64,000 nt of DNA from Botryllus schlosseri (Eukaryota). Both the position numbers and the translations under genes were made by a program. The notes under the pieces were generated by a model. That model did not search any database, had not been told where the DNA came from, and saw only the letters and a list, made by a program, of their open reading frames with translations. Below are positions 7,387 through 59,429 of the stretch, piece by piece; position 1 is the first letter of the stretch, and the number at the start of each line of letters is the position of its first letter. The DNA lies in assembly GCA_051294905.1 (NCBI GenBank), contig CM119371.1:38008001-38072000 (forward strand). Reading direction: 5' to 3'.

Positions 7387-7428
<42 letters not shown>

Positions 7429-30583: not shown

Positions 30584-33500
30584 AGTAGTTAGAGAAATGG
30601 GCGGAAGGTGCCCATTCGCGATTTATAATAAACAAACAAAGATTATCAATATAATAAACAATGAAAGAATTAGCTCATTCTCATTTTTGCAGCAATACTT
30701 TTATGACCCTGTGTGCGGCAATCAAAAAAAGGGGAATAATTAACGATAGAGAGAAAACGAACGAAGAATCTGGATTGACCTTTGTACTCAGACATGAGAC
30801 TTGAGTCATTCTACTTGTACTTTTCCACTCGCCTCCTGATTCTACCTGCCTTTATTCTGGGGTTTGCGAATATATTGAACGTAATCAGCTTCCAAAATAT
30901 CGATTGACCTTTTGTACTCTGACCAGACGTGAAACTTATTGATTAGTAATTCTACTTGTACTTTTCCACTCATGATTTAATCTGTCTCGCTTGACCTCTG
31001 AACAAGGACACGAAACTACAGCTGACTCCGGTCGTACGCGACGGTGATAATAGTTGCCTGCCCTGACCCGTCGTCTCGTGGTTCAATTTCGTGGCTTGGG
31101 AGCAATAACCCGTCAAACTGGTTGACTCGTCGTTCCGCGGTTGACTCAATTTCGTGTACGGTGGTTCATAGGAATAATTGCCGGTCGTGACGTCAGTGTA
31201 GTTTTCTCCTGATCCGTTAGATTCTGGTGCGTGTTTTAGGTGCCTATACGTCCGTCTGTGTAAAGTGACGCTTGTGGTCTGTCTCATACTGTCGTACTTG
31301 TCCGCCTTTTGCTTTTTTGTTGACTTAAATAGTGAGGAGAAATGATCTGTTATGATTATAAATATATGTGTCATTTCGAGTCATACCGAGAATCAGATTA
31401 AATGTAGTAGAAATTTGTATTAGGCGCCCCGACATGGATTGACTTAAATAAAATAGGATTATGAAAATAATAAGTAATTAAACAAATAGCTGATTCTCAA
31501 TTCATCAACGTGTTAACTTCCGGCATTACGTACCTAGTAATCGGTGCAAGCAACAACTGCTGTTCCATACCTATACCGCGTTCTAGCGTCTTAGGACAGA
31601 CAGTCCCAACCAAACAATGTATTTATGATGGGTTCTTTTACTGCTTCACGTCTGGTCCAGCGTAATCGTGCCGGTGTCTGTAAATGACATACAATTTACC
31701 GCGTCATATTAATTTTGTATGCTGTACAGTGTACATGATGTACATTGCACAACTTGAATCGATCTGTTGGCGAACGAATGCTTTACCCGTCTGTAACATA
31801 CACATATCGATCACGAGCTCACCACGCAGTTGTCGTTCGAGGGCGACTCATTTCGCTGCAGACAATCACTTGTGTCCGCGTGCCCCGTAAAAAATCCTCA
31901 ACACCTCCACACATATTTACAATATCATACTACGGGTATATTGCTTACCACGGGTATATTGCTTCGGCAGCCACGCACTGTCGCTCGAAGTCGACAAATT
32001 TCGCTGCAGACAATCAGTTGTGTTCGCGTATGTGTCGTAAATATATCCTCAACACATTTTATGCCAACACCTCCAAGCATATTCGCGGCATCATATATCC
32101 TCAACACATGTTATGCCAACACCTCCAAGCATATTTGCGGCATCATACTACGGATATATGGATTCGGGGGGAGTGTTACCGTCAGAGAATTGCTGTGTCA
32201 CGCCTTCGGGCCTTGCATTTTCCTCTCGGTAACTGCGAGTACGATGTCAGATTCAATTGTACAGTGACGAATCTGGGATAGCTCGCTTTAGCGGGGATCA
32301 GTGGACCGACGTTATTTTGTTGAAACACGCTCGGTTGCGGTGGTGCAATAATGGGGGATGAATTGTGTCAGATCATACGAGATGCGATCTAGCCTACTTT
32401 CGGTGAGGTGTAAAGATGAGCGAGAGATTTCGAATTCTGACTCCACCCCGACTCGGGTTGCCAAATCAAAGTCCAGAAAATCAGGCTAGCACGTAAAGTC
32501 CTGTTATTTTCACATGTTGTGAGGACAAAATATAGTATAAATCCGACTCTCAAGGCCATTTGGCCGCATCCAATCTGGCTTCGCTGAAAACTGATGAAAT
32601 CTGCGCCGGGTCCGGAGATGTTTCGTGACCTCCTCCGTCCAGACAAGATTGTTCTGCTGTAATATAGGTGTCGTTGTATAATAATTTACGTACAATGAGA
32701 CTTGGTATCGCCCCTTTGGCGGGATTCTGTTTGATTCGTCTATACAGGTGTTATTAGTGCGATCAGATTTGGCACCTCAAGAAGTATATTGGTAAAAATC
32801 GTGTCACGATGACAATAGCTTTACCGGTCAACATGCGGTCAACGGTCAACGACGCGGTGTGATGTACGTAAATCAGCTGTGATCAATCGAGCGTGACACA
32901 ATCGCTGTCAGTCATCAATCTGCGACTTGACAAAACTCGCGTTTTCTGGTTGACAGCAACGCGATATATTTGATGTCCCCGTCGACCCTCCTATTTTAAT
33001 AGGGTTACCATGCGGCCTCATTTAGGGGAGCATATGTCCTCCATTTCCCAGATATGTCACCCTTCGCCAAAATGTACTCTCTTTCTGTCAATTTGCTCTC
33101 CTTGTTAGCTTAACATATCCAAAAAACACCACGAGTAACGCAAAATGTGGGCCTAGATTACAAAAGTCGGGTACGTAGCCAAATCGGAAAAATGACGCTA
33201 TGATGGTATTGTGCTGGCTATTACGTGGATATACGTGGGCCTGTGTAAACATGTATAAGTGAATAGTAAAAGCGACGTAAACTACCTTTACATGAAGTAT
33301 AGGTGAACAGTAAAAGCGACGTAATCTACCGTTACATGTAAAAAGATCGAGCGCAGTCGACCATGCCGGGGTATACCTACCTTAGTACAGCCAAATGATC
33401 CAACGTCGTACCGAGAATAGCCGGGGTGATGGTATATCATTCTCACAAGATGTACTTTGGTATGCGTGTGAAATCGACATCGCCCGTTACTCGACTGAAG

Positions 33501-35296
33501 CAAGTCGCCACTGCAGTCCCTCTCTCTGTGTATGCACAACGTGCTGAGAACTGCAGATCCAGAAGAAACTACGCATTCTGGCGAGGTTATCGAGATAGCT
33601 GGAGCGATTCACAACACATGCTACATTTACTTCAAAACGGAAAGACAAAATATAGCTTTGGAGTACTCAAGTAGTTTTTAAGAAATGTCGGTATCGTGAA
33701 ATCGCCTTCTATCCTAATTATAAAAGAGTAGGTCCCCATAAAACTGTCGAGCGCAAGCACGTTGGTAACTGTGATAGTAGACAAAACTGACTCGAGTACC
33801 TCAGAAATAGTGCCTGTATTTCGTTGCTGGCCACGCGCCTGCTTATTCACACCGACTGACTCGCGTAGTAAGCCACTGCGCCCCGTCATCTTCTTATTGC
33901 TCAAATAATATTACAATGAATATACACTAAATTGATTCTAATTTGTCGGTATTGTTATCAGCACAAAAGACACAGTTACATCAAATAATTTTACAATTCA
34001 CGAAATTCATTTTAATTTTTAGGTAGTGTTATCAGCACAAAAGACACAGTTACACAAGTCTCGTAAATTGGTGTTGCTACACTACAATCGTTTTATGGCC
34101 TCTATTTAACGCATAGATCGATCGCGCGAGTGACGTTTCCGCAGACCAATTCTTGGCGTTTGATCAACTCTTGTCTGGTTATGGGGTTTCTAATCACAGG
34201 ACGATTGAGATTCGGGTGTGTCTTTTCGATACGTTGCGCAAACTCGATACCTTTCGTTCGGATTACGTATTCGCACTGCGGAAACCATTTTGCATGCTCT
34301 GTCCAAACCTCGTCTCCCCGGTCCCAACGAAGCCCGCCGCCACAGTAAAAACATTTGGTTCTGTCCGAATCAATGTAGTAAAACCCCGCTTTTGCTAACT
34401 GTTCAACACTAGCCTTAATTTTATTCGGTTCCCAGCCCTTGTCGAACGTTGCGATTCTTTTTGACAACGACGACATGAGAGGATTCACGGGGTTAAGACA
34501 AGGAAATAGTTGCTCAAGACATCGCTTTTCGTCCTCGGAGGGTTCCCGTGGTTCTTGTAGATGCAGTGTGAGACGTCGTATTTTGTCGCCGAGCAACTTA
34601 TCCAAATTGTCTCGTTCGTGCTCGGTTAGCGCCACATTCCCCGAATCGTCGCCACGTGCGAAACAACAACCCGGGTGATACGTCAAGTGTATTTCAGATA
34701 CATCGTCTGTAGGCCTCCAATTGCGGAGAACGCCGGAGCAGTTGAAGCACTGCGTTCTGTCCAGGTCACCGAGGTAGAATAAACCTTGTTTTGCCAACTC
34801 GCCGACCGCCCGTGGTATGGGATAGCTGGGCCATTTCTCAAAGGTTTCGCGACGCTTCGACTCCTTTCGCAAGTCGAGATTCCTAACCCGATACTCGTGC
34901 TCTTGATCAACGATATTCGCAAAGTTGATGTTGGCGTTTCCAACGGCTTTACACTGTCTCAATAAACTTTTGAAATTCGATTTCACAATAGGTATGTTCA
35001 ACGCGTCTCGTACACAATTCGCGTCATGACGCCGTGCACTCGACCCGGTCCATCTTTCGAGGTATACACTGCATCCAAAGCATTTGATTTTGTCTTCAAA
35101 TCCTAGCCAGTAGTATCCTTCAGACGCTAAATCGGTGCGTGTAGCGTATGATACTTTAGAGAATTTGGCGAACGTGGCGAGTCTGTACAATTCACTGCGG
35201 TGTGAACCGGAAGCGATATACACGCGTTTCTGTCCGGGTGGATCAGAGTATCTCTCCATTGACCTAATGCCAAGCTCTTTCATAAACATGAAGTAC
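30584..35296 (+). repeat. Left terminal inverted arm, outer segment (4,713 bp), mirror of 48597-53309
   Basis: Mirrored coordinates sum to 83893 throughout (e.g. ORF ends 34102/49791, 30970/52923). I spotted only two substitutions (near 33928 and 35143). Confidence 0.97.
34102..35289 (-). CDS. IAP: Second IAP copy (395 aa), protein identical to the right-arm copy from Met23; upstream 5' part cut off by the LTR insertion
   Basis: Translation identical to residues 23-417 of 48538..49791. The LTR element starts 8 nt upstream of the ATG. The displaced 5' codons lie at 41494-41552. Confidence 0.93.
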   Translation of the reverse strand: MFMKELGIRSMERYSDPPGQKRVYIASGSHRSELYRLATFAKFSKVSYATRTDLASEGYYWLGFEDKIKCFGCSVYLERWTGSSARRHDANCVRDALNIPIVKSNFKSLLRQCKAVGNANINFANIVDQEHEYRVRNLDLRKESKRRETFEKWPSYPIPRAVGELAKQGLFYLGDLDRTQCFNCSGVLRNWRPTDDVSEIHLTYHPGCCFARGDDSGNVALTEHERDNLDKLLGDKIRRLTLHLQEPREPSEDEKRCLEQLFPCLNPVNPLMSSLSKRIATFDKGWEPNKIKASVEQLAKAGFYYIDSDRTKCFYCGGGLRWDRGDEVWTEHAKWFPQCEYVIRTKGIEFAQRIEKTHPNLNRPVIRNPITRQELIKRQELVCGNVTRAIDLCVK

Positions 35297-35875
35297 TGCC
35301 GCGGTGTATAGGGTTTATGACAACATTGTATTTCAAACCCATATTAGCATATGACGTTGACTTCTTATTGGAATTATGTCGAGTGTTATAAGCTCGTGTA
35401 AGAGCTGGTGACTCACAACCTCCAAACCTTCATGAACCTAAAAACCACAAGCAGATATCATTCGATCTGGCTTTCATTCGATCAGAGGCAACCGCTGTCA
35501 AACTGGCAGAGTGTTGCAATTTATACCGCTGATACAGCTATGAGACAGATGTGATACACCTGTTGCGGGATTATATGATAATATCCAACATTGTGTATTT
35601 CACGCCATATTAGGAAACGAATAAGACTTCCGATTGCAATGATCACGAGTCTATATAAGCGCATGTTTAGTTGACTCGAGAGGAGACTCATTTGCTAAAC
35701 CTACTTGTAACAACGTCTGAAATATATTCGTATGTCTTGCGTCTATCTGCGTCTTAAGAAGATCTCACCAGGATACAGTACAAGACTCCAGGTTAAGTAG
35801 TCAGCCAGCTAACCCTATAATACTTTGGTTAGCTATACTTCTACTCACCAGGACACAACCCATTGTATAGCGACA
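35297..35875 (+). repeat. 5' LTR (579 bp)
   Basis: TG...CA termini. Matches 40911-41489 with one substitution noticed (gactCacaa vs gactGacaa). Confidence 0.95.
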
Positions 35876-36074
35876 TGATGACCCGAGCGATATCTTAAAC
35901 GCTACTACGTTACGTACGAGGACTTTTGACGTTGCCATCGAACTATCAAATTATCAGGATTCCGGACATTGATCAATATACGGTACGTGCTTATATTGCA
36001 TTCTGAAATAAGTATCGCGACAGCCTATAATTCCCTAGCCAATTCGTGTATTACATGTTATATATTATTATATA

Positions 36075-36833
36075 TTGTGCGCATGTTATATGTCTCCTTG
36101 GCTAGTAACTATACCTACGGTCGTTACTTCTAACGTTGATATCCCTAACATTGTTAAGCCCGTAAGAGCTTTCCCAGGTAAGATTAACGGAATGAATGAC
36201 GATGTGTCTAGCAGCGATAACTTCTCAGATTTGATCTTTCCTGATGTAATGTGTGATTCAGCTTCACAGCGCGTGTCTGATTTAAGTGTTATTCAGGATC
36301 ATAAATTAGATATTCCCGCTTTGCGTGATGAAGTAGTTGATACTCACGCAAACGTTGAACGTTGGTTGGCTAGTTCGCTTTCAAATGTTGATTCACAAAT
36401 TGACGCCAACGTCGTTCAGGACAATTCCCTTTTTGATGAGAAATCGCAGTTGAATAAAAACGCGCGCGCCGTACAACTCGATGTTTCGACTAGATTACGC
36501 TTGCGTCTAGTTTACGCGCTGCTAACTATGGTCCAATTAAATTCTGCTCAAATGTTAGATAGTGCACAGCAGAGTAACGTCGCGGGCTTGGGCGCTTGCG
36601 CGCAAACCGTGCGATTCATGCCTTTCAAATTGGCTCTCAGTAGAATTCGGAAAGAATTACAGCTTTTTCATTCAATCAAAAACGCGCTTAAACTTTCAGC
36701 GAGAAGGCACATTATGTGCTGGCGTCACACGAATTACGATAAAAAGGCACGCCAATGTACTGATGTTCGTTTTTGGCACTGGATTGATTTTTGTAAAAAA
36801 TTGACAGAATCAGTGCAGGTTCAGGATTTTTAG
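36075..36833 (+). other. 252-codon ORF in the gag position of the LTR element; product unrecognised
   Basis: Longest ORF of the LTR interior, just downstream of the PBS. No motif I can recognise. Confidence 0.25.
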
Positions 36834-38889
36834 TTGTGGTAGAATCTGTTTACAGCATCCCTGCGTTGGTGGTGTGCTGGCTCTGCCCGCTTCGGAATTT
36901 GACCGTGTTATTTTTGTTTCTATCTTTAGTTTCACATTGTCCATTTTACATTAGACTGTTTCGTGAACATGATTTCCTTTTGGCCTTAAAAGCGCCATGT
37001 TTTATTTCACCGATTCAGCCACGGGTGTGGTACAGTCGATACCACGTGGACGTTGTGACGTCAGAGACACGTTTTCCATACATGTCGCAATTTACAGACC
37101 GCGGGAAAACTTTTTTTTTTTTTAAGCCAGACGACCGCAATTTTCGTTTCAGAACATGATTGCTCCCACTCAAATTCGAGTTACATGAAACCTGTTCCTG
37201 TTTCCCGCGATATAGAACAGGACGTATTAGTGTCGCGAACAGGATATACTCCGCGAGATTCACCTTGCGCGGCTAATTCAAATTTACACGTGCTCGTTTT
37301 TTTTCATACAGAATTGTCTCAGATCCTCTTACAGGCTGGACAAGGTATATTATGCGATCTAAATTTTGACATTTAGGCAAACTTATTAAATTGGTTTTGC
37401 CTTTCACATTTCTCAGCGATACAGCGCTTATCGCAGACTCAGGACGTTGTAATTAGAATTGCACGCCGTCCATTGTTAACTGCTTCTTCAGGCGTACATG
37501 TTCACGCGCCTCGATACAGGAAGTGGTTTTGAATTTTCTTTCAACTCTCACGTTGGCGTGATCTTGCGTTAGTGCGAATTATAAATTTTCTGCTAAACTT
37601 CGTTTATTTTTGAGGTATCCTAGAGCGCTTAGTGCGTTCACTTGGGTAGTTATAGAGAAGTTGGCTCAGTAACGCGCCATATTCGATTTCATACGACACT
37701 GGATTGGCCTTGAGCGTCCAGTGGACAACTGGACATATGGGGTTTCTGCGTAAATGATTGTACATGCTTTAAAAATGGGTATACGGTTCTTTAACCTCAA
37801 ATTGCGTTCCGGCTTAAGTGATTTATCTGGCTATGTTTATCGAATGAAGGACATTGTTAAAATGATCTTAGCACCACCGTTGTATGGGATTTCAGCTCAT
37901 TGCGCAATAATTGCTTTCCCCCCGGTTTGCTGTCAAGAATTCCCCCATTTAATGCAGTTTGGACAACGTTTACCTCATGTAACAAGAATTGAGATGAAGT
38001 CAGCGTGTTTGAGTTTCAGATGTTTGGTGATGGTTTTTTTTCCTCATACCGAACCGCTGTTCAGTCGGGAACATGCGGAAGTTGAGATAGTGACTAGCTA
38101 GCACGTCTCAATGACCACAGCGCTAGCATGCGACTTGTTATAGCGACGATTCTGCAGGTACAGAACCGATCTGATTCTCAATACGAAATCTTGTGTCCAA
38201 TTTGAATACATTCGAATGTAACGTTGCACATCAAATATAGGCTATGCGATTCAGAAATCGCTCATTCCACTTATTGCAAATTCTGCATTATAATTATATT
38301 TAAGTTGACGCCAATGGAGTGCACCGTAATTGGTTTGTCATGGGAATTTCATCATTGATCAGAAATGCTTCCGGCAGTCTGTTATAGTACAGAAAAGCTT
38401 ATTTTTTTCCTGGCGGTCATTGTCGGCTCGGCCGTTAGTTCGTTGGTCAGAATCTATCACGTCTAGCTACTTATAGATAACGGAACAGCTCATTTCGGTT
38501 CAATATTCTAAATATCCGTATCCCACGAAAAATGTTCAATAATTATTTTTAATATAATTATGGCATTCTCATTTCGCAGAACGCGTCTGTAACTCGAATT
38601 CCAATCTCATTACATGATTGTAAAGTATATAGTTGAATCGACGCGCCACGTAGCTTACTGAGACGTTCTTAGATTGTCCAGTAAGGTGGATCCTTAGCCT
38701 GGAAGGATTATGATAGCATTTTATCACACGTATCTCTCCGCATGTTTTTAATTCAGTACTTGCGTGAGTTGTATGCTTCTCATATCGCCAACCGTTATTA
38801 CACCTTTACGGCCTTAAATGCTGTTAGGTGCTGCCTTTGTTTATTTCATTTGGAATTATCGAATTACCTGCCTTAATACGTCACGTCAA

Positions 38890-39703
38890 CATAGGTGACC
38901 CGTCACGAAGTACTTCTAGATATGATTTTCTCTACTTCTACTTCTACTTCGTAATATTTTGTGATCTACTTGCTTACTTTTCGCTATTCAGTTGTCAAGT
39001 AGAAGTAGTGTGATCCTCCAATACGAAGATAGCCTGGGGAATTTCAGGTCTGTTTCATGGAGTACCGACATTCATTTTCATCAAAGTCCAATAAAGCCAG
39101 GAATTTTTCGCTTCGCGCACAGTCGTTGTAATGGACAAATATGTTTTCAGCGAAATGTCGGTGAATATAAATTGGGTTCCGTATTGTGTTGTTCCGCTCA
39201 TACGGCACTGTCGCCCATATCAAATTTCATCACAGTAACTACGGCCATCAAACGCTAGAAACTACCGTTTGGCAATCGGGCAATTACCCTTTGTATCGTA
39301 ATCTAGCAGCCTGGACATGTGCTAATAAGATAAGTGAACTCCAGTGTTGTTATTTTAAGCTGCACCTGTTTTAGCAGACCACCTTTGAAACTTTCTGGAT
39401 AAAAGACATGAAATATATTTTCCGCTTTCAAACGTGGTATTATGTTTCTCTTTCAATTCCGAGAATCATACTTGGTTTAAATACTCCATTTCTTTTGTCT
39501 GCACAACATACATCTTGAAGTATACAGTCAAGTACCGGTATAGTAATTCCTCCATTTTCCGGAATAAGGATACACTATATGGTAAATTTACGATCCAACA
39601 TATTGTTGATTAACGTTGGCCTATAATAATCGCGCAAAGATTGACAGTCCATGCAAACGAATTGAGACTGTTTTCAAAACTACTTGTACTTTTACCACCT
39701 CCG
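38890..39703 (+). mobile_element. hAT-type MITE inside the LTR element, same family as 25141-26436
   Basis: Ends cataggtg...ccacctccg, 8-bp TSD CACGTCAA (38882-38889, 39704-39711). Internal similarity to 25141-26436. Confidence 0.8.
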
Positions 39704-40910
39704 CACGTCAAGTAGTTACCCTCCTTATAGCTTGTAGTTACGGGGCTTTGGAGACATTTATTTCATTGTATTTTATTGCTTGTTTCTCTTGTGTCGTATT
39801 CGTGCTAAGCCTAGTTGTTAAGTCCTTTTCAAAGTGATGCTGGCTGTCGTGTGCTGTTTCAGATTTGCGCATGCACGTTACGAACGCATTTCTACTCGAC
39901 GCGGTGCTCCTGCTTCTACTCCTACGCGTGGCAACTACTCCGATTAGAACATGGAATTGCGATCGATCGATTCGGGCGAGAATACTCCTGAGGCACAATC
40001 TGACGGGTATCACTCAGATGCAAGCACTCGACGTCACACAGTCGACATCGGTACCGAGCGTCCGCTTTTACGACACGAGGAAATTGCTACCGGACCGCCG
40101 CAGTTATTAGCCGACACGACCGACCGAAGCTCAGCTCTCACTACAATCTACACCGGACGCCAACCGGGGTGATCAAATCGTTCCTACCTCAATGGTACAT
40201 GATCGAGAGCTTAATGCCGTTCTGACCCGTCACGATTTACCAGCGGACTCGCCGAAATTGCCGCTTCCAAAGAAGAAGCCCCAACCATAGTAAGTCCTGA
40301 TGCACCGATGAATTCAGGCAATCGCCCTGCCACGGATGAGTAAAGCGGAAGAGCACCGCGCGCGCGTTGATTGAGATAGCCGTCGATTCTATCCAATCAA
40401 AAAATTGTACTTGCGATGTACAATTGTTTTTTTGTAACCGCCACATTGTATATATGGGTGGCCATGGACTGTTGTTAAAGTTGGATAGCCTTCCAGACTT
40501 GGCTGGTGTATTGCACTTGAGCAAGCCTACTGGGATGTATTGTGTATTTGTTTTTTTGTGTTAGGCTACCTATTCTAGTGTATTACTTCGGATAGTGTAG
40601 TGTTGAATAACAATTCTTGCTCTGGTTATCTGGAGTTGTGTTGTATTGTATAGGCTAAATGTAGTTAGTTGTTAGGTCACTATTACTTATTCTAGTGTAT
40701 TAATCTGGAATTGTGTTGTGATCTGCTAGGCTAACTTGTATATTATAAAAGCTGTAGAAAACCTTGTTCACCTCTCGTGTGGTATTAGTGTTGCTGAGTT
40801 GATTTAATTAGTGGAATTGTCTTGGCTAAATGTATTACTGTTGTCTACACCTATACGTATGATAGTTACTTCCGCTTCATTGCATGTTCGCTCCCTCAAA
40901 CAAGGGTCGG

Positions 40911-41489
40911 TGCCGCGGTGTATAGGGTTTATGACAACATTGTATTTCAAACCCATATTAGCATATGACGTTGACTTCTTATTGGAATTATGTCGAGTGT
41001 TATAAGCTCGTGTAAGAGCTGGTGACTGACAACCTCCAAACCTTCATGAACCTAAAAACCACAAGCAGATATCATTCGATCTGGCTTTCATTCGATCAGA
41101 GGCAACCGCTGTCAAACTGGCAGAGTGTTGCAATTTATACCGCTGATACAGCTATGAGACAGATGTGATACACCTGTTGCGGGATTATATGATAATATCC
41201 AACATTGTGTATTTCACGCCATATTAGGAAACGAATAAGACTTCCGATTGCAATGATCACGAGTCTATATAAGCGCATGTTTAGTTGACTCGAGAGGAGA
41301 CTCATTTGCTAAACCTACTTGTAACAACGTCTGAAATATATTCGTATGTCTTGCGTCTATCTGCGTCTTAAGAAGATCTCACCAGGATACAGTACAAGAC
41401 TCCAGGTTAAGTAGTCAGCCAGCTAACCCTATAATACTTTGGTTAGCTATACTTCTACTCACCAGGACACAACCCATTGTATAGCGACA
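40911..41489 (+). repeat. 3' LTR (579 bp)
   Basis: Direct repeat of 35297-35875, followed by TSD GTAC. Confidence 0.95.
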
Positions 41490-44688: not shown

Positions 44689-45654
44689 CAGTGTTGGGAT
44701 CAAGTCACTACCTTCGAGTCACGAGTCATTTCGAGTCATTGCACATTTTGACTCGAGTCAAGTCAAGTCAATCGATTTTCGAAGGTGACTCGAGTCAAGT
44801 CAAGTCAGTCGATTTTTGGAGGTGACTCGAGTCAAGTCGAGTCAAGTCAAGTCAAGTCACGAGTCAAGTCACAATTCAAGTCAAATTGCCGTCTGAGGTA
44901 TGAGACGTGATTACGTCATTGTATTTTGCTAGCTGTCTGAAATACAGATTATAAGTGGTCATTGATTTTGAACCGATGAAGGGATATAGAGTTAAATACA
45001 CACGCAAGTGAGGCGCTGTAGCGCTCACATATAAGTAGAACCAATAAACTACGTAAGTAATTGCACAACCTCAGTTTATAGTTACCAGCCCAAATAGAGA
45101 ATAGAGAAACGAATTGATAAGATGTAATACATTACCCTTTTGCAAATTGATATGATACAATTCGAGCCTGCGCCAATGGTTGAGGACTATATATTTTTGA
45201 ATTCAATTTCAATAAAACAAGAGGTTTGGTTGATAAGTTAAGAACACAGAACAGGAATGGACATTTTGGTATTAAATTACTTTCCTATACTAAAGTCAAG
45301 ACAACGTAGGCTGTAAACTTCGATCACGTCGTTTGCCATCAATATATTTGTGAGAGAACAATGGAGGCTCAGTAAAACGCACGATCATTGAATGATTGGC
45401 TGCTCTCAGGAGACACCAGCGTTGCGCGAGCAATCCGAACATATGCAATGATTTTTATAGACACCGATTACTTGATGACTTGAAATTGACTCGTGAGTTT
45501 TGCTCCGAGTCACGAGTCAATCCACGTTTCTGATACGCCGAGTCAAGTCAAGTCAAGTCATTTCAGCAAAGTGACTCGAGTCAAGTCAAGTCATACGAAA
45601 AAGTGACTCGAGTCTGACTCGAGTCAAGTCATGACTCGAGTCATCCCAACACTG
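44689..45654. mobile_element. hAT-type MITE with GAGTC/AAGTC subterminal repeats in the foldback spacer
   Basis: TIR cagtgttgggat / atcccaacactg. Perfect 8-bp TSD GCGTCCAC (44681-44688, 45655-45662). Confidence 0.92.
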
Positions 45655-47081
45655 GCGTCCACCCCTCCAAACACATAGTTACGGGGTATGGCGGGGACCC
45701 GGAAACTCGGGGTATAGCTTATTAGTAATTCTACCGGATGACTTATTTTAGCACCGGATGATTTTAATGCTTGACGTTTGCCTTGTTTTATCTAACGAGT
45801 GTAAAATTTCAACTAGATGTACGCTGCACAAAGTGTACAGTGTACATACCCCCGACCAGGCAGCAGCGCTCAAAAGTGTGTTTAACCCAACGGAAACACC
45901 GCTAATTACGTTACTATTTCAAACTACAGACAGAGTGGGGGTTTATATGGCAAAAATAACACCCATTCAAAAGTCACTTGACAAAATTGATGAACCCTCG
46001 TATATTAATCGATGTAGTCAACTGGTTTGTGTTGTCTAATCTACTTTTTGCACCCGCTTCACTGCTCCACACCAGGTGTAAACTCGAGTAAACATATTTA
46101 TTGAGGCGTATAGCACGCAGTGGGGTGGATCAACACTGTATTGATGGGCACCCCAAAAGCCTAGATAGGGGATAATGTGACGTTTAAGGAATAACGAAAT
46201 GACACGTTAGCGCCTGTGTTTTCACAGATCATCGGCTTACCCATGAGTAAAATGCGACATTTATCGTAGGTGCGGTAAACGATCGGTTACGGTCCAGAAT
46301 GAGATGCGGTAAACGCGTATTGTGTTGAACGCATCAAATTTGTCCCTCTGTCTATTTATGACCACACTCGACGATAACAAACATTCAAAGACATGAAAGC
46401 ACGTACGAGCGAATATCGACGCTAACAAGAGAACGATCGATCAATGTTCAGCTTGGCAGTGACTTTCCGCTTCAGTAAGTTTACCAAAGCCACGAGGTCG
46501 TGCAAATAGATGTCAATTTCTATATTCTACACATGACCGAGTGATCGCTATTACGACGTTTGACATCGGCACTCCAAACAGTGAGATAGACTGATGCTAA
46601 CAAAGGTCTTGGAAGGCCAAGAACCGCGACCCGAGCAACACCGTTCAAAACGCTTCGTACCCGTACCATTACAGAAGTGGGGTAACCTCTGTATGATCGG
46701 GTCAGTCGAATAACTGTGATTACAGGAGTTGGGTGACCTTGGTACGATAGGGTCTATCGAATACCTGTGAATGTCGGTGTGGCCATTAGATTTGTGTTTG
46801 CTAGTTGTTGCTTCTAATCTTTGTCTGATGAATTAAGCCGCTCTCCATCACATTACCAGTAGAGAGAATAAAGTTGCCGTATCGGTGTTATCGAAAATAC
46901 CCACAACGCAAGGTCACCTGTTTCAGTTACCCGACGTACATTCGTTGGTCGAGATAGGTCTCATACTGAGTCGTCGGTGAATTGACGCAACAGTGTGACA
47001 ATTTCGTTTGTGTTTACTGGTACTTGTCTGTAGCGTCGATAGAAAACAACTTAATGAATTGATATCTCTGTCAATTTAGGG

Positions 47082-48228
47082 CAGTGGTTCTTAAACTTTT
47101 TTGAGCGCGACCCAAATCTGAGTTTCATGATCACCTCACGACCCAAATCTCAAACATAAAAAAATGTATTTTTTGTGTTACCACTCTGCTAATTTTTCAG
47201 ATAAGACACAGACAACCAGTTATAGTACACAGTACTATGAAAGAACAATTTATTAGAGACAGATCATTCATTCAGTGTGATTGATGAAACTGAAAGTTCT
47301 CTTTCATAATATTTTCAATGCACGGCTCTATCTTACTGAGCGCAATGCGCAAATCGTCTCCAGGACCGAGGCGATTGCGAGCCCTGGTTTTAACAACCGT
47401 CAGTGCGGAAAATCCTTGCTCACACAGATAAGTGGTCGCAAATGGGAGCAGAAAAGCCATTGCTTCGTTACCGATTATTGGCTTTTCCTTTTTAACCGAA
47501 GTCCAGAACTCTCCAAGTGACGCAGAGGAAAAAAGAAGTCGATGGAATTGGTCATGATGCAGGTCGATAAACTCTTCCTGTATTCCTGCAACATCCTCTG
47601 GTAAATTGTCAACCCTTGCCAAAAACGGATCTTGATACAAAGCGCGCTCGAATCATGACGCAACGCAGCAGATAATCGATGATCACCTCGCAAATCACAA
47701 TGTATCAGATCAGATGGAAGTAGCAAACAAATTTCGATGACAGCGAGGCATCTTGACCTTAATTACCAAAGCGAGGATGTAATCACGAAAGTGCGCGCAG
47801 ATCATATTACAGCACAGTGGAAGATCTCTCCATTTTGCGCTCAAAGACGAACACTCGAACAGTGAAGACACGCAAATGAATTATAGTCTGTTGCCGTTTG
47901 AAACAAACAATCTGGATTAATTTTGTTTTAAATCAATATGATTTTTACTGTCTGCCAAGATGGTGTAGTATTTTTGGTGTGTGGAGATGGTAAAGACTAA
48001 TTACTGCTCGAGCTTGTGCGATTGCATCATGTGAATAACAGTGGCCTGGCGCAGGCTTAGATTCGCGATCAAAATACATTCCATTCCTTAACTTAGTCTT
48101 TTTAGCAGCTACTGGGCTAAGTAGTTACGCCTAGTGTAGCTGCGCTGCCATTGAAACTCTTAGAAAACCACTTATGATGCAATAATCCACTAAGAAGCTA
48201 AATGAAATGCGTATGATGAAGCAATAAT
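47082..48228 (-). mobile_element. One-ended (truncated) hAT/Charlie-like DNA transposon in the right arm
   Basis: TIR-like cagtggttcttaaactttt begins exactly where arm homology breaks (47082). Contains a transposase remnant. The other end and ~93 bp of arm are missing. Confidence 0.8.
47272..47640 (-). pseudogene. hAT (Charlie/ZBED5-like) transposase C-terminal dimerisation-domain remnant
   Basis: LGEFWTSVKKEKPIIGNEAMAFLLPFATTYLCEQGFSALTVVKTRARNRL...DLRIALSKIEP...QFHQSH* is a typical Charlie-type C-terminus. No N-terminal part. Confidence 0.88.
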
Positions 48229-48537
48229 AAATACTGTTATCAAATCCACATTGTCCTCGTTATTATCGGCGAGATACGGCTTTGTAGTGACATTGCTGTT
48301 GCCAAAATACATTGAATACGATTTATTCCTCGTATGTGTTGATCGGTGGTCGAATAATGTATCGATTCAGCAATTCGTACCGCCCGAGGTACTATGCTAC
48401 ACACGCCCCGCGGACTGCAGAAGTGGCCCGCTCCTACACATATGTAAATGGTGCAATAGCGACAGCTAACGGTTGTCAATCAGCCATAAAAGTACAGCTA
48501 ACCAGTAATACAGCTATCAAGGATAAACTAGGAATAT

Positions 48538-49791
48538 ATGTGTGAGCCGACTCGGTTGACCTATGGGGCACGCTTAGACACAAAAGCTCTGTCTTGGTAC
48601 TTCATGTTTATGAAAGAGCTTGGCATTAGGTCAATGGAGAGATACTCTGATCCACCCGGACAGAAACGCGTGTATATCGCTTCCGGTTCACACCGCAGTG
48701 AATTGTACAGACTCGCCACGTTCGCCAAATTCTCTAAAGTATCATACGCGACACGCACCGATTTAGCGTCTGAAGGATACTACTGGCTAGGATTTGAAGA
48801 CAAAATCAAATGCTTTGGATGCAGTGTATACCTCGAAAGATGGACCGGGTCGAGTGCACGGCGTCATGACGCGAATTGTGTACGAGACGCGTTGAACATA
48901 CCTATTGTGAAATCGAATTTCAAAAGTTTATTGAGACAGTGTAAAGCCGTTGGAAACGCCAACATCAACTTTGCGAATATCGTTGATCAAGAGCACGAGT
49001 ATCGGGTTAGGAATCTCGACTTGCGAAAGGAGTCGAAGCGTCGCGAAACCTTTGAGAAATGGCCCAGCTATCCCATACCACGGGCGGTCGGCGAGTTGGC
49101 AAAACAAGGTTTATTCTACCTCGGTGACCTGGACAGAACGCAGTGCTTCAACTGCTCCGGCGTTCTCCGCAATTGGAGGCCTACAGACGATGTATCTGAA
49201 ATACACTTGACGTATCACCCGGGTTGTTGTTTCGCACGTGGCGACGATTCGGGGAATGTGGCGCTAACCGAGCACGAACGAGACAATTTGGATAAGTTGC
49301 TCGGCGACAAAATACGACGTCTCACACTGCATCTACAAGAACCACGGGAACCCTCCGAGGACGAAAAGCGATGTCTTGAGCAACTATTTCCTTGTCTTAA
49401 CCCCGTGAATCCTCTCATGTCGTCGTTGTCAAAAAGAATCGCAACGTTCGACAAGGGCTGGGAACCGAATAAAATTAAGGCTAGTGTTGAACAGTTAGCA
49501 AAAGCGGGGTTTTACTACATTGATTCGGACAGAACCAAATGTTTTTACTGTGGCGGCGGGCTTCGTTGGGACCGGGGAGACGAGGTTTGGACAGAGCATG
49601 CAAAATGGTTTCCGCAGTGCGAATACGTAATCCGAACGAAAGGTATCGAGTTTGCGCAACGTATCGAAAAGACACACCCGAATCTCAATCGTCCTGTGAT
49701 TAGAAACCCCATAACCAGACAAGAGTTGATCAAACGCCAAGAATTGGTCTGCGGAAACGTCACTCGCGCGATCGATCTATGCGTTAAATAG
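48538..49791 (+). CDS. IAP: Inhibitor of apoptosis protein with 3 BIR domains, no RING, intronless (417 aa; alternative start 48604 gives 395 aa)
   Basis: BIR1: ELYRLATF...LASEGYY...CFGC-x14-H-x3-C (atypical spacing). BIR2: RRETFEKWP...LAKQGLFY...CFNC-x16-H-x6-C. BIR3: RIATF...LAKAGFYY...CFYC-x15-H-x6-C (WTEHAKWFPQC). Single uninterrupted ORF. Confidence 0.95.
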   Translation: MCEPTRLTYGARLDTKALSWYFMFMKELGIRSMERYSDPPGQKRVYIASGSHRSELYRLATFAKFSKVSYATRTDLASEGYYWLGFEDKIKCFGCSVYLERWTGSSARRHDANCVRDALNIPIVKSNFKSLLRQCKAVGNANINFANIVDQEHEYRVRNLDLRKESKRRETFEKWPSYPIPRAVGELAKQGLFYLGDLDRTQCFNCSGVLRNWRPTDDVSEIHLTYHPGCCFARGDDSGNVALTEHERDNLDKLLGDKIRRLTLHLQEPREPSEDEKRCLEQLFPCLNPVNPLMSSLSKRIATFDKGWEPNKIKASVEQLAKAGFYYIDSDRTKCFYCGGGLRWDRGDEVWTEHAKWFPQCEYVIRTKGIEFAQRIEKTHPNLNRPVIRNPITRQELIKRQELVCGNVTRAIDLCVK

Positions 49792-52700
49792 AGGCCATAA
49801 AACGATTGTAGTGTAGCAACACCAATTTACGAGACTTGTGTAACTGTGTCTTTTGTGCTGATAACACTACCTAAAAATTAAAATGAATTTCGTGAATTGT
49901 AAAATTATTTGATGTAACTGTGTCTTTTGTGCTGATAACAATACCGACAAATTAGAATCAATTTCGTGTATATTCATTGTAATATTATTTGAGCAATAAG
50001 AAGATGACGGGGCGCAGTGGCTTACTACGCGAGTCAGTCGGTGTGAATAAGCAGGCGCGTGGCCAGCAACGAAATACAGGCACTATTTCTGAGGTACTCG
50101 AGTCAGTTTTGTCTACTATCACAGTTACCAACGTGCTTGCGCTCGACAGTTTTATGGGGACCTACTCTTTTATAATTAGGATAGAAGGCGATTTCACGAT
50201 ACCGACATTTCTTAAAAACTACTTGAGTACTCCAAAGCTATATTTTGTCTTTCCGTTTTGAAGTAAATGTAGCATGTGTTGTGAATCGCTCCAGCTATCT
50301 CGATAACCTCGCCAGAATGCGTAGTTTCTTCTGGATCTGCAGTTCTCAGCACGTTGTGCATACACAGAGAGAGGGACTGCAGTGGCGACTTGCTTCAGTC
50401 GAGTAACGGGCGATGTCGATTTCACACGCATACCAAAGTACATCTTGTGAGAATGATATACCATCACCCCGGCTATTCTCGGTACGACGTTGGATCATTT
50501 GGCTGTACTAAGGTAGGTATACCCCGGCATGGTCGACTGCGCTCGATCTTTTTACATGTAACGGTAGATTACGTCGCTTTTACTGTTCACCTATACTTCA
50601 TGTAAAGGTAGTTTACGTCGCTTTTACTATTCACTTATACATGTTTACACAGGCCCACGTATATCCACGTAATAGCCAGCACAATACCATCATAGCGTCA
50701 TTTTTCCGATTTGGCTACGTACCCGACTTTTGTAATCTAGGCCCACATTTTGCGTTACTCGTGGTGTTTTTTGGATATGTTAAGCTAACAAGGAGAGCAA
50801 ATTGACAGAAAGAGAGTACATTTTGGCGAAGGGTGACATATCTGGGAAATGGAGGACATATGCTCCCCTAAATGAGGCCGCATGGTAACCCTATTAAAAT
50901 AGGAGGGTCGACGGGGACATCAAATATATCGCGTTGCTGTCAACCAGAAAACGCGAGTTTTGTCAAGTCGCAGATTGATGACTGACAGCGATTGTGTCAC
51001 GCTCGATTGATCACAGCTGATTTACGTACATCACACCGCGTCGTTGACCGTTGACCGCATGTTGACCGGTAAAGCTATTGTCATCGTGACACGATTTTTA
51101 CCAATATACTTCTTGAGGTGCCAAATCTGATCGCACTAATAACACCTGTATAGACGAATCAAACAGAATCCCGCCAAAGGGGCGATACCAAGTCTCATTG
51201 TACGTAAATTATTATACAACGACACCTATATTACAGCAGAACAATCTTGTCTGGACGGAGGAGGTCACGAAACATCTCCGGACCCGGCGCAGATTTCATC
51301 AGTTTTCAGCGAAGCCAGATTGGATGCGGCCAAATGGCCTTGAGAGTCGGATTTATACTATATTTTGTCCTCACAACATGTGAAAATAACAGGACTTTAC
51401 GTGCTAGCCTGATTTTCTGGACTTTGATTTGGCAACCCGAGTCGGGGTGGAGTCAGAATTCGAAATCTCTCGCTCATCTTTACACCTCACCGAAAGTAGG
51501 CTAGATCGCATCTCGTATGATCTGACACAATTCATCCCCCATTATTGCACCACCGCAACCGAGCGTGTTTCAACAAAATAACGTCGGTCCACTGATCCCC
51601 GCTAAAGCGAGCTATCCCAGATTCGTCACTGTACAATTGAATCTGACATCGTACTCGCAGTTACCGAGAGGAAAATGCAAGGCCCGAAGGCGTGACACAG
51701 CAATTCTCTGACGGTAACACTCCCCCCGAATCCATATATCCGTAGTATGATGCCGCAAATATGCTTGGAGGTGTTGGCATAACATGTGTTGAGGATATAT
51801 GATGCCGCGAATATGCTTGGAGGTGTTGGCATAAAATGTGTTGAGGATATATTTACGACACATACGCGAACACAACTGATTGTCTGCAGCGAAATTTGTC
51901 GACTTCGAGCGACAGTGCGTGGCTGCCGAAGCAATATACCCGTGGTAAGCAATATACCCGTAGTATGATATTGTAAATATGTGTGGAGGTGTTGAGGATT
52001 TTTTACGGGGCACGCGGACACAAGTGATTGTCTGCAGCGAAATGAGTCGCCCTCGAACGACAACTGCGTGGTGAGCTCGTGATCGATATGTGTATGTTAC
52101 AGACGGGTAAAGCATTCGTTCGCCAACAGATCGATTCAAGTTGTGCAATGTACATCATGTACACTGTACAGCATACAAAATTAATATGACGCGGTAAATT
52201 GTATGTCATTTACAGACACCGGCACGATTACGCTGGACCAGACGTGAAGCAGTAAAAGAACCCATCATAAATACATTGTTTGGTTGGGACTGTCTGTCCT
52301 AAGACGCTAGAACGCGGTATAGGTATGGAACAGCAGTTGTTGCTTGCACCGATTACTAGGTACGTAATGCCGGAAGTTAACACGTTGATGAATTGAGAAT
52401 CAGCTATTTGTTTAATTACTTATTATTTTCATAATCCTATTTTATTTAAGTCAATCCATGTCGGGGCGCCTAATACAAATTTCTACTACATTTAATCTGA
52501 TTCTCGGTATGACTCGAAATGACACATATATTTATAATCATAACAGATCATTTCTCCTCACTATTTAAGTCAACAAAAAAGCAAAAGGCGGACAAGTACG
52601 ACAGTATGAGACAGACCACAAGCGTCACTTTACACAGACGGACGTATAGGCACCTAAAACACGCACCAGAATCTAACGGATCAGGAGAAAACTACACTGA

Positions 52701-55700
52701 CGTCACGACCGGCAATTATTCCTATGAACCACCGTACACGAAATTGAGTCAACCGCGGAACGACGAGTCAACCAGTTTGACGGGTTATTGCTCCCAAGCC
52801 ACGAAATTGAACCACGAGACGACGGGTCAGGGCAGGCAACTATTATCACCGTCGCGTACGACCGGAGTCAGCTGTAGTTTCGTGTCCTTGTTCAGAGGTC
52901 AAGCGAGACAGATTAAATCATGAGTGGAAAAGTACAAGTAGAATTACTAATCAATAAGTTTCACGTCTGGTCAGAGTACAAAAGGTCAATCGATATTTTG
53001 GAAGCTGATTACGTTCAATATATTCGCAAACCCCAGAATAAAGGCAGGTAGAATCAGGAGGCGAGTGGAAAAGTACAAGTAGAATGACTCAAGTCTCATG
53101 TCTGAGTACAAAGGTCAATCCAGATTCTTCGTTCGTTTTCTCTCTATCGTTAATTATTCCCCTTTTTTTGATTGCCGCACACAGGGTCATAAAAGTATTG
53201 CTGCAAAAATGAGAATGAGCTAATTCTTTCATTGTTTATTATATTGATAATCTTTGTTTGTTTATTATAAATCGCGAATGGGCACCTTCCGCCCATTTCT
53301 CTAACTACTTACGCGTCAGTAAGTCTCATCGAAGTTGGATGAAAAGCTTTACGTAGTTTACCTACAATTCGATAATATGAATATATTTTTGAGCCAATAA
53401 CATAACAAATATAACTAAACTTTAGCCAATTCTACAATTTTCTAAATAGCCCTATGGTAGGGTTACCATACGTCCTCTTTTTAGAGGATTTGTCATCATT
53501 TTTTACTTTTTTGAAAGTGTCCTCGGAGGACGCCCTTTTGTCCTCTTTTTTTTTGAGATTTTGTCCATTTTTTGAGAATTTTGGTCATATTTATAGCAAA
53601 ATGCGACTGAGATGCCGTAAATCAGCACCGAAGTGACGCTCCGGCGGGTATTTCGGGAGCTGAGTGGAAAGTTGACCTTTTTTTTAGTCAACCGTCTACA
53701 ATATAGGAAAAATTTACAATTTATTTGAGAATTCTCCTCCTATTTTGCAAGTCTGAAAATCCTGAAAAAGTGTCCTCTTCTCGGATTTCCAAAATATGGT
53801 AGCCCTACCTATGGTCCACCTCAAAATGCTCCTGTGGCCCACTGTTTGAGAACCCCTAAGCTAGACTAATCGGCGACTTGACGTATCAATATCGAAGGTT
53901 TCGCCCATAATGCGTATATCATTTCATCGGCGACGATCTTTCTGCGAGGGCACAGGTGAAGTCGGATGCTGAACGACACGTTGTTTCATAATTGCTAATA
54001 TAGTCTGATTCAATTCTGTACCTTAGTAATATTTTTTAATATGATAATAATTTTCTTGAGGGGTACCGATAACAGAAGCAAGCCACCGAGTGACATTAAA
54101 TTTCAAAAGTTCAAGTTAAATAAATGCGCCGCGAAATATTCAACTTTATTGTAATATACGAAAATCTACAAACATGCGGTTGGTCCCTGACTACGCCAAT
54201 CCGTCGGCGCTGATAGTTTAGTCATCAAGATACCAAGTTTTGTGGTCAAGCCAATCAGATTTTTGACTGGCCTTACAAGTAATAAATTATCTGGGCATTT
54301 GATATAACTAATTTAGACAATTACCTCGCGGGGCACTCAAAACCTTCTTACGGGTGACAGGTTGGTCATCCCCAATATATTGCATCGATTCCCAACCAGA
54401 AAGCGTTTGCTTTTTCTCTGGGGTTCGCGGAGACGACAATAAAATCATCATCATCATCATCATCATTTTAACAACATTGTTATTAAATCAAAACACCCGC
54501 CATCTCACTGATTCTGCATTTTTCGTTCATGAATTGAATGAATTACGTATTTGTTTTAACACAGTTGTAACGGAATGGCAATTGTTGCGCACATAGTCGT
54601 TGATATGAGTTACCGCGACGCAAGTTTCCGAACCGCTGATGCATATATTCAACTAAGCATTATTTCTCGGCTGTGACGTGGGCCTATTTCTCTCGCGCGG
54701 AATCGCGGAAGTGCTCGTTTGTGAGAAGTTTGCAGCGTTGCTAGTTACTTGTGAGTAGCGAAATATCTGTACAACGTATGGTGTCGGCCTCGTGTAAAAT
54801 GACGATTGACGATTGATCTCGAAGCACCATGAATACCAAACGAACAAATCATCACATCAACAATAACGGCCTGATGTGAGTCGGATTGTAGGCAGAGTAT
54901 TGTATATCATCGATCATGGAGCGCTTATTAAACTCAGCTTAAACCGGAAGGATGTTCATAATTCGAACCCGAACCAGATAAGTCTGACCAAACTGCACAA
55001 TTATTACAACAAAAATCCAAGTAAACAATCCTGACTCTCAACAACAGAAACTCAAAGGGGAAATTCGGACGCCAAACGCTCTCTGCCAACTATCTTGAAA
55101 TTGGAAGTCGATGACATTCGAAGTGAATATAAGCTCTACGTATTTTTGAGACGCTTTTTCGTGCCTTCCTTGCAATACACTATAATTTGAGACATTCTAG
55201 TCTAGCTAGTCTAGCTAGTCTGTTTTAACTGTTATCTCGGCAATCAGGAGACATCGTTGTGGCACATGCTCCCTGTATTTCTGATTTCTGATTTCTGACG
55301 GATAACAGTTAGTTTGGTGCAAAGAATGTTCAGATGCGCGCCAAACTCAACGTATACCCGAGTTTAGTCGCCTACCGGCTTCCAATGAAGATTCCCTAAC
55401 GTTGAAATACCGGAATGTTCATGGCATAGATCTGTCGATCATTTGAAGAATTTTATGAACACCGCTTTAGTCTGTGGTAAAACATAGGCCTATACACACG
55501 CTCGGCTTGGCGTGACACATAATTTAACGTAACCTACAATGCGCTTACAGAATCACCGCCGTTATAGCAGACTCCGCCGTTCTATGGTCGCTGGCACGCC
55601 CACGCTACAGTCAACGGCAGCTAATTTCAAACGCAATTAGCTAAATCCTAACGACTTTCCTGTGAGCTTATTTCATGCAGGCTCATTGACGTTTTTTGAT

Positions 55701-58924: not shown

Positions 58925-59429
58925 CTCTAGTGTCACTGCATTTCTTGATTTTAATGAGCGTATCTACAGTTTTTTCACGGTTTGGTCTAGGTGGCCGCTA
59001 AGTAGCTTTAAGACACCGCAAACTTCATATAATGCCAGAAATGTTCTCCCACCTAAGAGAAGCTTCGGTTAAGTTACGCCAAAAGCAATTGTTAAAACTA
59101 AACGTCAGGTTGAGTAAATACGTTTATGACATCATAAGCTTCATAATATCCAGTTGAAGTCAGAGAAGAGTCCAGAAGGAATAGAATTACCTCGAAACTA
59201 GGTTTCGCAAGAAAAGCTATTATTATGTTATTTCTGTAGTATTATCACCGAGCTTTTAGTTGTAAGACTGACTATACTTAGACAGGCACCTTTACAAGCC
59301 GAACTCGAAGTGTATTCCTTCAGCAGAACACATGCATGTCTGTTATCAAAACAATACAGGAACCCATCGCTGGGCTCAATCAAGCATATCATAACACCAC
59401 AATTTCTGATTTCAAAGGTTACTTTAGGA

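Follow-up and report, generated by a model that had tools for sequence, protein, structure and literature searches.

We analyzed a stretch of 64,000 nucleotides from the genome of Botryllus schlosseri (GenBank assembly GCA_051294905.1, contig CM119371.1, positions 38,008,001 to 38,072,000 of the forward strand), hereafter the window, and found that it harbors, at 30584-53309 (numbering from the first letter of the window), a transposed element with the shape of a giant palindrome, each arm of which embeds an open reading frame (ORF) for an inhibitor of apoptosis (IAP). The element is a real transposed member of a multi-copy family, neither an artefact nor a one-off. It is probably (we would put the probability at about 0.6) a young copy of a non-autonomous family of the Maverick/Polinton type, which would contribute only its ends in cis and would be copied and integrated by the Mavericks residing in the same genome.

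Structure of the Element and of Its Target Site

The features of the element, of its target site duplication (TSD) and of its empty site are the following, with a strand where one applies; the spacer includes a miniature inverted-repeat transposable element (MITE).

9168..9173, empty target site in the paralogous/duplicated flank (window self-comparison)
30578..30583, left TSD TACGCG, in single copy at the paralogous empty site 9168-9173
30584..53309, whole element, 22,726 bp, or ~14.5 kb once the later disruptions are removed (ends and arms read, family copies compared)
30584..30602, + strand, left terminal motif, (AGT)2 followed by a variable heptamer and ATGGGC, matching the family pattern AGTAGTWWNNNWRATGKGC
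30624..30657, + strand, 34-nt subterminal motif conserved in the family, 108 genome matches
30584..35296, outer part of the left arm, 4713 bp, 99.958% reverse-complementary to 48597-53309
41490..43082, inner part of the left arm, including the ancestral 89 bp 41866-41954, collinear with copies C11a, C4a and C5a
43083..45953, unique central spacer, ~1.9 kb plus the nested MITE, matched at 91.5% by the centre of copy C12a
45954..53309, right arm, split by the foreign segment 47082-48223
53291..53309, - strand, terminal motif of the right end, the left one in reverse complement, closing with ACTACT
53310..53315, right TSD TACGCG (read directly)

As the first-pass annotation of this DNA had read, the first letters of the element are AGTAGT (30584) and the last ones ACTACT (53309), and a perfect 6-bp TACGCG lies on both sides. 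In the self-comparison of the window, 5808-9173 aligns to 27239-30583 (98.2%) and 9168-13740 to 53310-57886 (99.4%); since these two flank alignments overlap by exactly 6 bp (9168-9173), the paralogous copy runs on without interruption and has TACGCG only once, in agreement with the empty site that had been proposed there. The giant inverted arms are also found as described. Indeed, the outer part of the left arm (30584-35296) pairs with 53309-48597 over 4713 nt with only 2 mismatches (99.958%), and the inner part pairs in two blocks (41489-41865 with 48601-48224 and 41955-43082 with 47081-45954); the left arm measures ~6.3 kb and the spacer 2871 bp including the nested MITE. Removal of the three later disruptions leaves ~14.5 kb, that is, two arms of ~6.3 kb and a spacer of ~1.9 kb, as first estimated. 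Tandem repeats are limited to three short arrays within 4.7 kb of arm (TRF), and the arm/spacer junction is crossed by short-read contigs of run X1 (two contigs) and run X14 (one contig).

A Multi-Copy Family Whose Arms Evolve in Concert

The host assembly that we searched comprises 495.5 Mb. The first 400 bp of the element gave inverted match pairs 8-23 kb apart on many contigs (best 40 of 1762 candidates scored), the 19-nt terminal motif gave 194 matches versus nine for the reversed control, and the 34-nt subterminal motif gave 108 matches (51 on the plus and 57 on the minus strand) versus none for its control. The numbers of terminal and subterminal matches correspond to ~95 elements. On contigs C1-C7, to which the pairing of ends was restricted and where the motif matches listed suffice for it, 49 elements with paired ends were recognized, with a median length of 14,743 bp.

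Eleven other copies were compared in detail with the window element. In each of them, as in the window, AGTAGT starts both ends (24/24 ends examined), and nine of the 11 have a perfect 6-bp TSD, all different from each other, one has a TSD with one mismatch and one (C1b) has none; other loci with the same ends and different 6-bp TSDs, which the earlier annotation had regarded as support for its reading, do therefore exist. In a family member, one end region (~3-7 kb) is repeated in opposite orientation on the other side of a unique centre (~1-2 kb), and the whole forms a near-perfect palindrome. In six of the 11 copies (C7a, C12a, C11a, C9a, C4a and C5a) the arms are uninterrupted, 2.9-7.3 kb long and 98.5-99.95% identical within the copy; in C2a, C10a and C8a other DNA separates the inverted pieces, which measure 1.1-3.4 kb (99.7-99.9%), C3a has a terminal inverted repeat (TIR) of 448 bp and a nested long terminal repeat (LTR) retrotransposon, and the arms of C1b are 94.5% identical. 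The identity between different copies is 80-96%. Since the arms are this similar within a copy and the copies this different from each other, the two arms evolve in concert, in a way that might be explained by the mode of replication considered below.

At one locus (G000:C2:28650613-28682016) one member is seemingly nested in another, with the inner ends at about 28655129-28669241. Moreover, 0.34-0.43 of the 31-mers sampled from the right arm are present in sequencing runs under the labels of four other organisms (0.32-0.43 when a marine metagenome is included), and near-identical family sequence may occur beyond the source organism.

The IAP Genes in the Arms

The two cargo genes of the window element are as follows.

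34102..35289, - strand, left IAP ORF, 395 aa, three BIR domains, no RING, intronless (the end includes the stop codon)
48604..49791, + strand, right IAP ORF, identical 395 aa, its frame being open also from an ATG at 48538 in the window copy only

The two ORFs translate identically and contain three BIR domains (Pfam, E 1.3e-46). In the comparison with the PDB, BIR3 matches the BIR3 of cIAP1/XIAP and NAIP (E 1e-20 to 1e-31), BIR2 that of XIAP (1e-13) and BIR1 that of cIAP1 (4.5e-8); the spacing of the zinc ligands, as read from the translation, is canonical in BIR2 and BIR3 and shortened in BIR1. Thus, the protein resembles the cellular IAPs of the XIAP/cIAP type in having three BIR domains and differs from them in having no RING, UBA or CARD and in being encoded, with its 395 aa, by a single exon. 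The search of the Atlas clusters with this protein retrieved generic BIR clusters only, and no match was found among the IMG/VR viral contigs.

The first-pass annotation had described an intact three-BIR IAP pointing outward in each arm. The ORFs are indeed open and identical, whereas "intact" must be limited to the ORFs themselves, because both copies have insertions just upstream. As regards transcription, RNA covers the 3' part of the IAP at a depth of 6-11 in a single-cell run, with low coverage also in a bulk run, and the coverage stops ~250 bp past the stop codon. None of the 15 best-supported joints listed (of 91) is a splice joint in the RNA runs. That splicing might join the IAP to a RING exon farther downstream was considered and rejected on the basis of these splice and coverage data and of the lack of a RING match in the downstream ORFs. 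Transcripts of the family IAP are therefore present at low depth, but all the RNA reads over the IAP differ in letters from the window copy.

Dispersal of the IAP Genes and Selection Acting on Them

Searching the genome with the IAP protein gave 106 matches, 73 of which at an identity of at least 87% and mostly arranged as divergent (-,+) pairs 5-7 kb apart; 52 of these 73 are full length, with open frames of at least 394 aa. The internal TGA codons reported for these matches include the natural stop, which, as checked in three elements, precedes that of the window copy by three codons. Among the 11 other copies compared, four carry the IAP in both arms and seven lack it. Of the 42 family IAP matches on C1-C7, 34 are enclosed by a pair of family ends; they belong to 19 of the 49 elements (15 of which hold two), which means that ~40% of the members on these contigs carry the gene in their arms, transcribed outward. 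The remaining eight matches have no end fitting the strict motifs. The closest IAPs outside the family are 62-73% identical. The idea that such elements might offer a route for the expansion of the IAP family is thus borne out by at least 73 IAP copies spread in this way.

Since the copies lie inside TIR-bounded DNA elements with 6-bp TSDs, their dispersal is DNA-mediated. Retroposition, which would leave copies with a TSD of their own and a poly(A) tail but without TIRs, was considered as well and rejected: the IAP is intronless, yet it lies in TIR-bounded arms that are conserved beyond the gene and have a 6-bp TSD, and 34 of 42 matches fall between paired termini.

In all 18 comparisons between elements the dN/dS of the IAP ranges from 0.19 to 0.45, a pattern that indicates purifying selection on the gene between copies. 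The differences between the two arms of one element, which are small in number (one, two and three versus no synonymous ones), are all nonsynonymous. It is worth comparing the relatedness of the ends with that of the genes. The terminal 1 kb of the window element is closest to those of C10a and C9a (92%), both of which lack the IAP, and it shares 83-86% identity with those of three IAP-bearing copies, the IAPs of which match that of the window at 95-96%; in C11a, the fourth IAP-bearing copy, 352 bp of the terminal 1 kb aligned, at 92.9%. This mismatch suggests the loss, gain or exchange of the IAP module, and a different constraint on the two modules could also have produced it.

A second IAP family was observed, with 28 matches at 70-73% amino acid identity to the window IAP and open frames of 407 aa. 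Its members form mostly convergent inverted pairs 0.6-1.7 kb apart that are not near the family terminal motif (for example, G000:C4:18247014-18249884, C10:5954653-5957815 and C6:10856733-10859601), and it may represent another palindromic IAP carrier.

Mavericks Residing in the Same Genome

In the available text of the survey by Barreat and Katzourakis (PMC8097293), the commonest end motif of vertebrate Mavericks is 5'-(AGT)2//(ACT)2-3', accompanied by a perfect 6-bp TSD, the alternative motif being (AG)3//(CT)3; the TIRs range from 46 to 1,447 bp and the sizes from 12.7 to 24.6 kb. The window element has the end motif, the TSD length and the size of a Maverick, and it has TIRs too, but these exceed the range. 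The earlier assertion that ends of the AG/CT type and a 6-bp TSD constitute a Maverick signature agrees with the commonest published end signature (PMC8097293).

The genome contains Mavericks of its own. A search with the Pox_A32 family revealed a multi-copy 274-aa frame, and this was the route to the one Maverick that we examined whole, assigned here to a lineage A (L051:1144 to L052:9025; G000:C1:35758643-35776524). It is 17,882 bp long, with AGTAGT/ACTACT ends, a GGTTTC TSD and 242-bp TIRs that are 97.5% identical, and it harbors an rve+Chromo integrase, an A32-like ATPase and a 1310-aa polymerase-like ORF, the nearest Atlas clusters of which carry PF03175 (DNA_pol_B_2) in 96-100% of their members. 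Its cargo comprises ORFs for a protein of the Bcl-2 family (173 aa), for a ubiquitin-conjugating enzyme, E2 (160 aa), and for a protein with a single BIR (135 aa). In the Pfam search of the genome, none of nine candidates for DNA_pol_B_2 and no Peptidase_C5 was found, although Mavericks are present; since the Pfam scan misses even the 1310-aa polymerase, these negatives reflect low sensitivity and not absence.

The search for the Maverick polymerase gave 356 candidates, and the statements on lineages rest on the best 35, which were scored and all of which have open frames of at least 1288 aa. According to their identity to the examined copy, they fall into three lineages (91-100%, 12 loci; 65-67%, 10 loci; 61%, 13 loci). 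A lineage-B end (L054:2024-4743; G000:C1:7939523-7942242) begins with AGTAGTATATAAGTGC, hence with AGTAGT, and within the first 700 bp of the element that were read it contains a death-domain ORF of 119 aa, 260 bp inside the end. The single-BIR ORF of lineage B (147 aa), which overlaps an opposite-strand ORF of the flank, shares 54% identity with that of lineage A.

One observation concerns both kinds of element: copy C9a of the palindromic family (L043:5710-8150, G000:C9) contains ~1 kb of non-coding sequence resembling the right subterminal part of the Maverick examined whole (88% over 686 bp), which begins 25 bp inside the arm/centre boundary; the same centre holds a 4.1-kb tandem duplication.

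Possible Origin of the Family

The family has transposed with 6-bp TSDs, has (AGT)2 ends, possesses no gene for replication, integration or capsid formation, exists in many dispersed copies and shares its genome with Mavericks whose polymerase frames are open. These data are the basis on which we favor a non-autonomous family of the Maverick type.

Several results weigh against this assignment. The arms, at 6.3 kb, are 4-5 times as long as the longest reported vertebrate Maverick TIR (1,447 bp). None of the 83 ORFs of at least 45 aa in the right arm and spacer has a significant Pfam match (none better than E 0.03), and none of 15 non-BIR proteins of the examined resident Maverick matches the window or the 11 other copies in tblastn, the sixteenth protein, the single-BIR one, matching the element's IAP at 25-33% identity. 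Genes for pPolB, the rve integrase, capsid, packaging ATPase and protease were thus not found in the element by Pfam or by tblastn with the proteins of that Maverick; the sole rve match in any copy belongs to the LTR retrotransposon nested in C3a. The earlier remark that the IAP is the only recognizable gene remains valid, also after this search for remnants of the Maverick core. There is no DNA similarity between the examined lineage-A Maverick and the window element. The terminal sequence in common with lineage A amounts to 8 nt, and the lineage-B end and a variant of the family (C9a) have 12 nt in common; a putative lineage-C end, the position of which is not certain, shares 6 nt with the family termini. 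The 34-nt motifs that are listed (100 of the 108) are all at least hundreds of kb away from the 35 scored pPolB loci, and the 21 of these loci that are situated on C1-C7 have no listed 19-nt terminal motif near them. Accordingly, the autonomous Maverick with the same termini to which the first-pass annotation had looked for support is missing from the 35 scored loci (of 356), the common ends being only 8-12 nt long. The family IAP is 25-35% identical to the Maverick single-BIR proteins, a value that rules out its being a recent derivative of the Maverick single-BIR gene. On the whole, no homology ties the element to a Maverick beyond the 6-nt end repeat and the length of the TSD.

The supposed advantage of carrying an IAP is also open to objections. 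A pairwise dN/dS below 1 among TE copies reveals constraint somewhere on the lineages, and not the beneficiary. Both IAP copies of the window have foreign DNA just upstream. Finally, an mRNA of the family IAP exists, but the RNA reads, all of which differ from the window copy, do not establish expression of the window copy itself.

The most serious competitor is a foldback-type, cut-and-paste family unrelated to Mavericks, whose DDE transposase would have escaped identification, whose ends and TSD would resemble those of Mavericks by coincidence and which would have captured its IAP as a host gene or retrogene. The lack of any Maverick gene remnant and the fact that similarity to the resident Mavericks ends at 8-12 terminal nt would fit this idea, as would the giant arms around a central spacer, which recall foldback elements, the 62-73% identity of the closest other genomic IAPs and the cellular character of the IAP across all three BIRs. 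However, the exact (AGT)2//(ACT)2 ends with a 6-bp TSD are both the published Maverick signature and that of the examined resident Maverick, no transposase ORF was found in 12 copies, and the arms, with three small arrays in 4.7 kb, are not built of tandem repeats. We know of no other superfamily combining (AGT)2//(ACT)2 ends with a 6-bp TSD. This explanation therefore appears unlikely to us, even if it is the one that survives best among the alternatives.

If the family is of the Maverick type, it would provide only the cis-acting ends, and the protein-primed polymerase and the integrase of the resident Mavericks would act in trans. Since no scored Maverick shares more than 8-12 terminal nt with it, this mobilization by a helper Maverick is something that we infer. 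In adenovirus-like protein-primed replicons, replication initiates internally and the polymerase then jumps back; the invariant double trinucleotide at the tip, beside a variable heptamer, might reflect the need of a polymerase of this kind. The palindrome might have arisen via a strand switch during displacement synthesis, which would have duplicated the origin-bearing end and generated a defective linear replicon. At each replication cycle, the arms might be re-homogenized by pairing within the displaced single strand, which would explain why they are 98.5-99.96% alike within a copy and the copies 5-20% different. The divergence of the arms would then date the insertion, and the window copy (0.04% in the outer arm) would postdate the divergence of the flank duplication (0.5-1.8%) and predate its three nested events. 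The IAP might be kept since blocked cell death would favor the propagation of the element, of the helper or of the carrier cell, a role that matches the apoptosis regulators carried by the resident Mavericks; the by-product would be a large expansion of IAP genes driven by transposable elements (TEs).

A bolder form of the same idea is that the palindromes represent satellite or defective-interfering-like genomes of endogenous Mavericks, with protein priming from the (AGT)2 ends, hairpin resetting of the arms, integration and perhaps packaging by the helper, and an IAP that keeps the replicating cell alive. We advance it tentatively, and we would not bet on it at even odds. If it were true, a virus satellite would be the main engine of the expansion of the IAP family in this animal, and the bursts of dispersed, intronless IAP "retrogenes" of IAP-rich marine invertebrates may then represent genes carried by DNA elements of this kind.

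It can also be imagined that the vehicle is the one favored here and that the IAP is kept by host-level selection for dosage or diversity, the element being merely the duplicating agent. The dN/dS values of 0.19-0.45 and the open state of most ORFs speak for this, and the IAP expansions of marine invertebrates are, in the available texts, widely read as adaptive (PMC7831173, PMC13159474); indeed, a host benefit as the source of the constraint is compatible with either vehicle. Conversely, the differences between the arms of one element are all nonsynonymous, which, with the small numbers involved, suggests relaxation after insertion; moreover, the expression of the IAP is low, members lacking the IAP transpose equally well, and the apoptosis regulators of the resident Mavericks point to a benefit at the level of the element. 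We consider host-level selection a still more doubtful explanation than the foldback one. Lastly, a false palindrome or duplication introduced by the assembly, which the near-perfect arms and a flank duplication of 98-99.5% (possibly a collapsed or duplicated haplotype) might suggest, can be discarded for practical purposes, because the same architecture with independent TSDs recurs at dozens of loci, each arm has its own later insertion and contigs of two runs cross the arm/spacer junction.

Comparison with Known Systems

Drosophila-type Foldback (FB) elements, which are mostly non-autonomous, have long inverted arms, made of tandem repeats, around a central spacer and a 9-bp TSD. The window element shares with them the arms around a spacer and the non-autonomy, but its arms consist of complex, unique sequence and contain a gene, and its TSD is 6 bp long. 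Defective linear replicons with an inverted duplication of one end, and the panhandle repair of terminal repeats in adenovirus-like protein-primed replicons, offer another term of comparison: here too, an origin-bearing end is duplicated in inverted orientation around a unique centre and the ends are kept identical. Those replicons, however, are extrachromosomal by-products of infection, whereas the element belongs to an integrated, multi-copy germline family.

With Mavericks/Polintons (polintoviruses, adintoviruses), the element has in common the (AGT)2//(ACT)2 ends, the perfect 6-bp TSD, the presence of TIRs and a size near 15 kb (PMC8097293, in its available text). It differs from them in having no pPolB, integrase, ATPase, protease or capsid gene, in having arms of ~6.3 kb instead of 46-1,447 bp, in a wholly palindromic body with doubled cargo and in its ~95 copies. 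Maverick cargo in itself is already known. An insect adintovirus is annotated with an IAP in the accessible part of its description (bioRxiv 10.64898/2026.07.28.741253), and nematode Mavericks carry host-like cargo genes between the TIR and the core genes, which are spread by the element and the modularity of which suggests recombination (Widen et al., bioRxiv 10.1101/2022.07.12.499685, in the part available). The nematode carriers are largely complete, whereas the carrier described here has no core gene and bears its cargo twice. What is new is a high-copy, palindromic, core-less element of putative Maverick type with a doubled and constrained IAP payload. A phrase search of 8.4 million full texts for non-autonomous or defective Mavericks or Polintons, outside of which Repbase-type entries lie, gave only "non-autonomous polintons", said of Tlr1, besides "Polinton-derived".

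In bivalves, bursts of intronless, dispersed IAP "retrogenes" have been reported, for which retroposition was inferred and near which DNA transposons are enriched (Song et al. 2021, PMC7831173, available text). The copies described here are likewise many, dispersed, intronless and closely related, but each is enclosed in a DNA element that has TIRs and a 6-bp TSD. In the accessible portions of two reports (PMC13159474, PMC7831173), IAP expansions are documented and transposition is suspected with no vehicle named. Similarly, the available text of a TE survey of the hard clam gives Maverick as the largest named class of DNA transposons and draws no link to IAPs (PMC8905726), and that of a planarian study describes retroelements with BIR and BCL2-like domains and mentions Foldback elements (PMC6431247).

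The family represents a concrete, sequence-defined vehicle for the puzzle of the numerous and dispersed IAP genes of some marine invertebrates, and probably a high-copy, non-autonomous relative of Mavericks. Its coexistence with resident Mavericks carrying apoptosis regulators (Bcl-2 and BIR in lineage A, a death domain in lineage B) makes a conflict between virus and cell death testable. As for annotation, at least 52 "IAP genes" of this genome are TE cargo in mirror pairs, which inflates gene counts and mimics inverted tandem duplication.

Later Disruptions and Surroundings of the Element

Three events have altered the element.

35297..41489, + strand, nested LTR retrotransposon, LTRs at 35297-35875 and 40911-41489, TSD GTAC
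44689..45654, nested high-copy hAT-like MITE, 966 bp, TIR CAGTGTTGGG, 8-bp TSD GCGTCCAC
47082..48223, 1142-bp foreign segment in place of 89 bp of the right arm, with a weak sub-threshold hAT dimerization match

The 579-bp LTRs of the first, which has TG..CA ends and a 4-bp TSD, differ by one mismatch; it sits 7 bp upstream of the ATG of the left IAP, and its ORFs have no Pfam domain match. The MITE shows a read depth ~100-fold above that of the neighboring sequence, with loose ends at both borders. All three events, described at first as younger insertions, are real, and the LTR element and the MITE are insertions; the third one, ~380 bp upstream of the right IAP ORF, is instead a replacement and not a clean insertion, since its 1142 bp stand where the left arm has 89 bp, which are retained there (41866-41954) and in other family copies.

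The empty and the filled sites are carried by a large direct duplication of the flanks (3063-18809 versus 26127-64000, 96-99.5% identity), with a further 1,040-bp indel at 57887-58925; either a true segmental duplication or two haplotypes set in tandem could account for it. Between the duplicated blocks, a 293-aa open frame (21126-22007, - strand) with a sub-threshold RVT_1 match (26.9 bits versus a cut-off of 29.6) is probably a fragment of a retroelement. Lastly, a 276-bp repeat occurs in three copies at 99.6-100% (286-561, 7951-8226 and 29359-29634).

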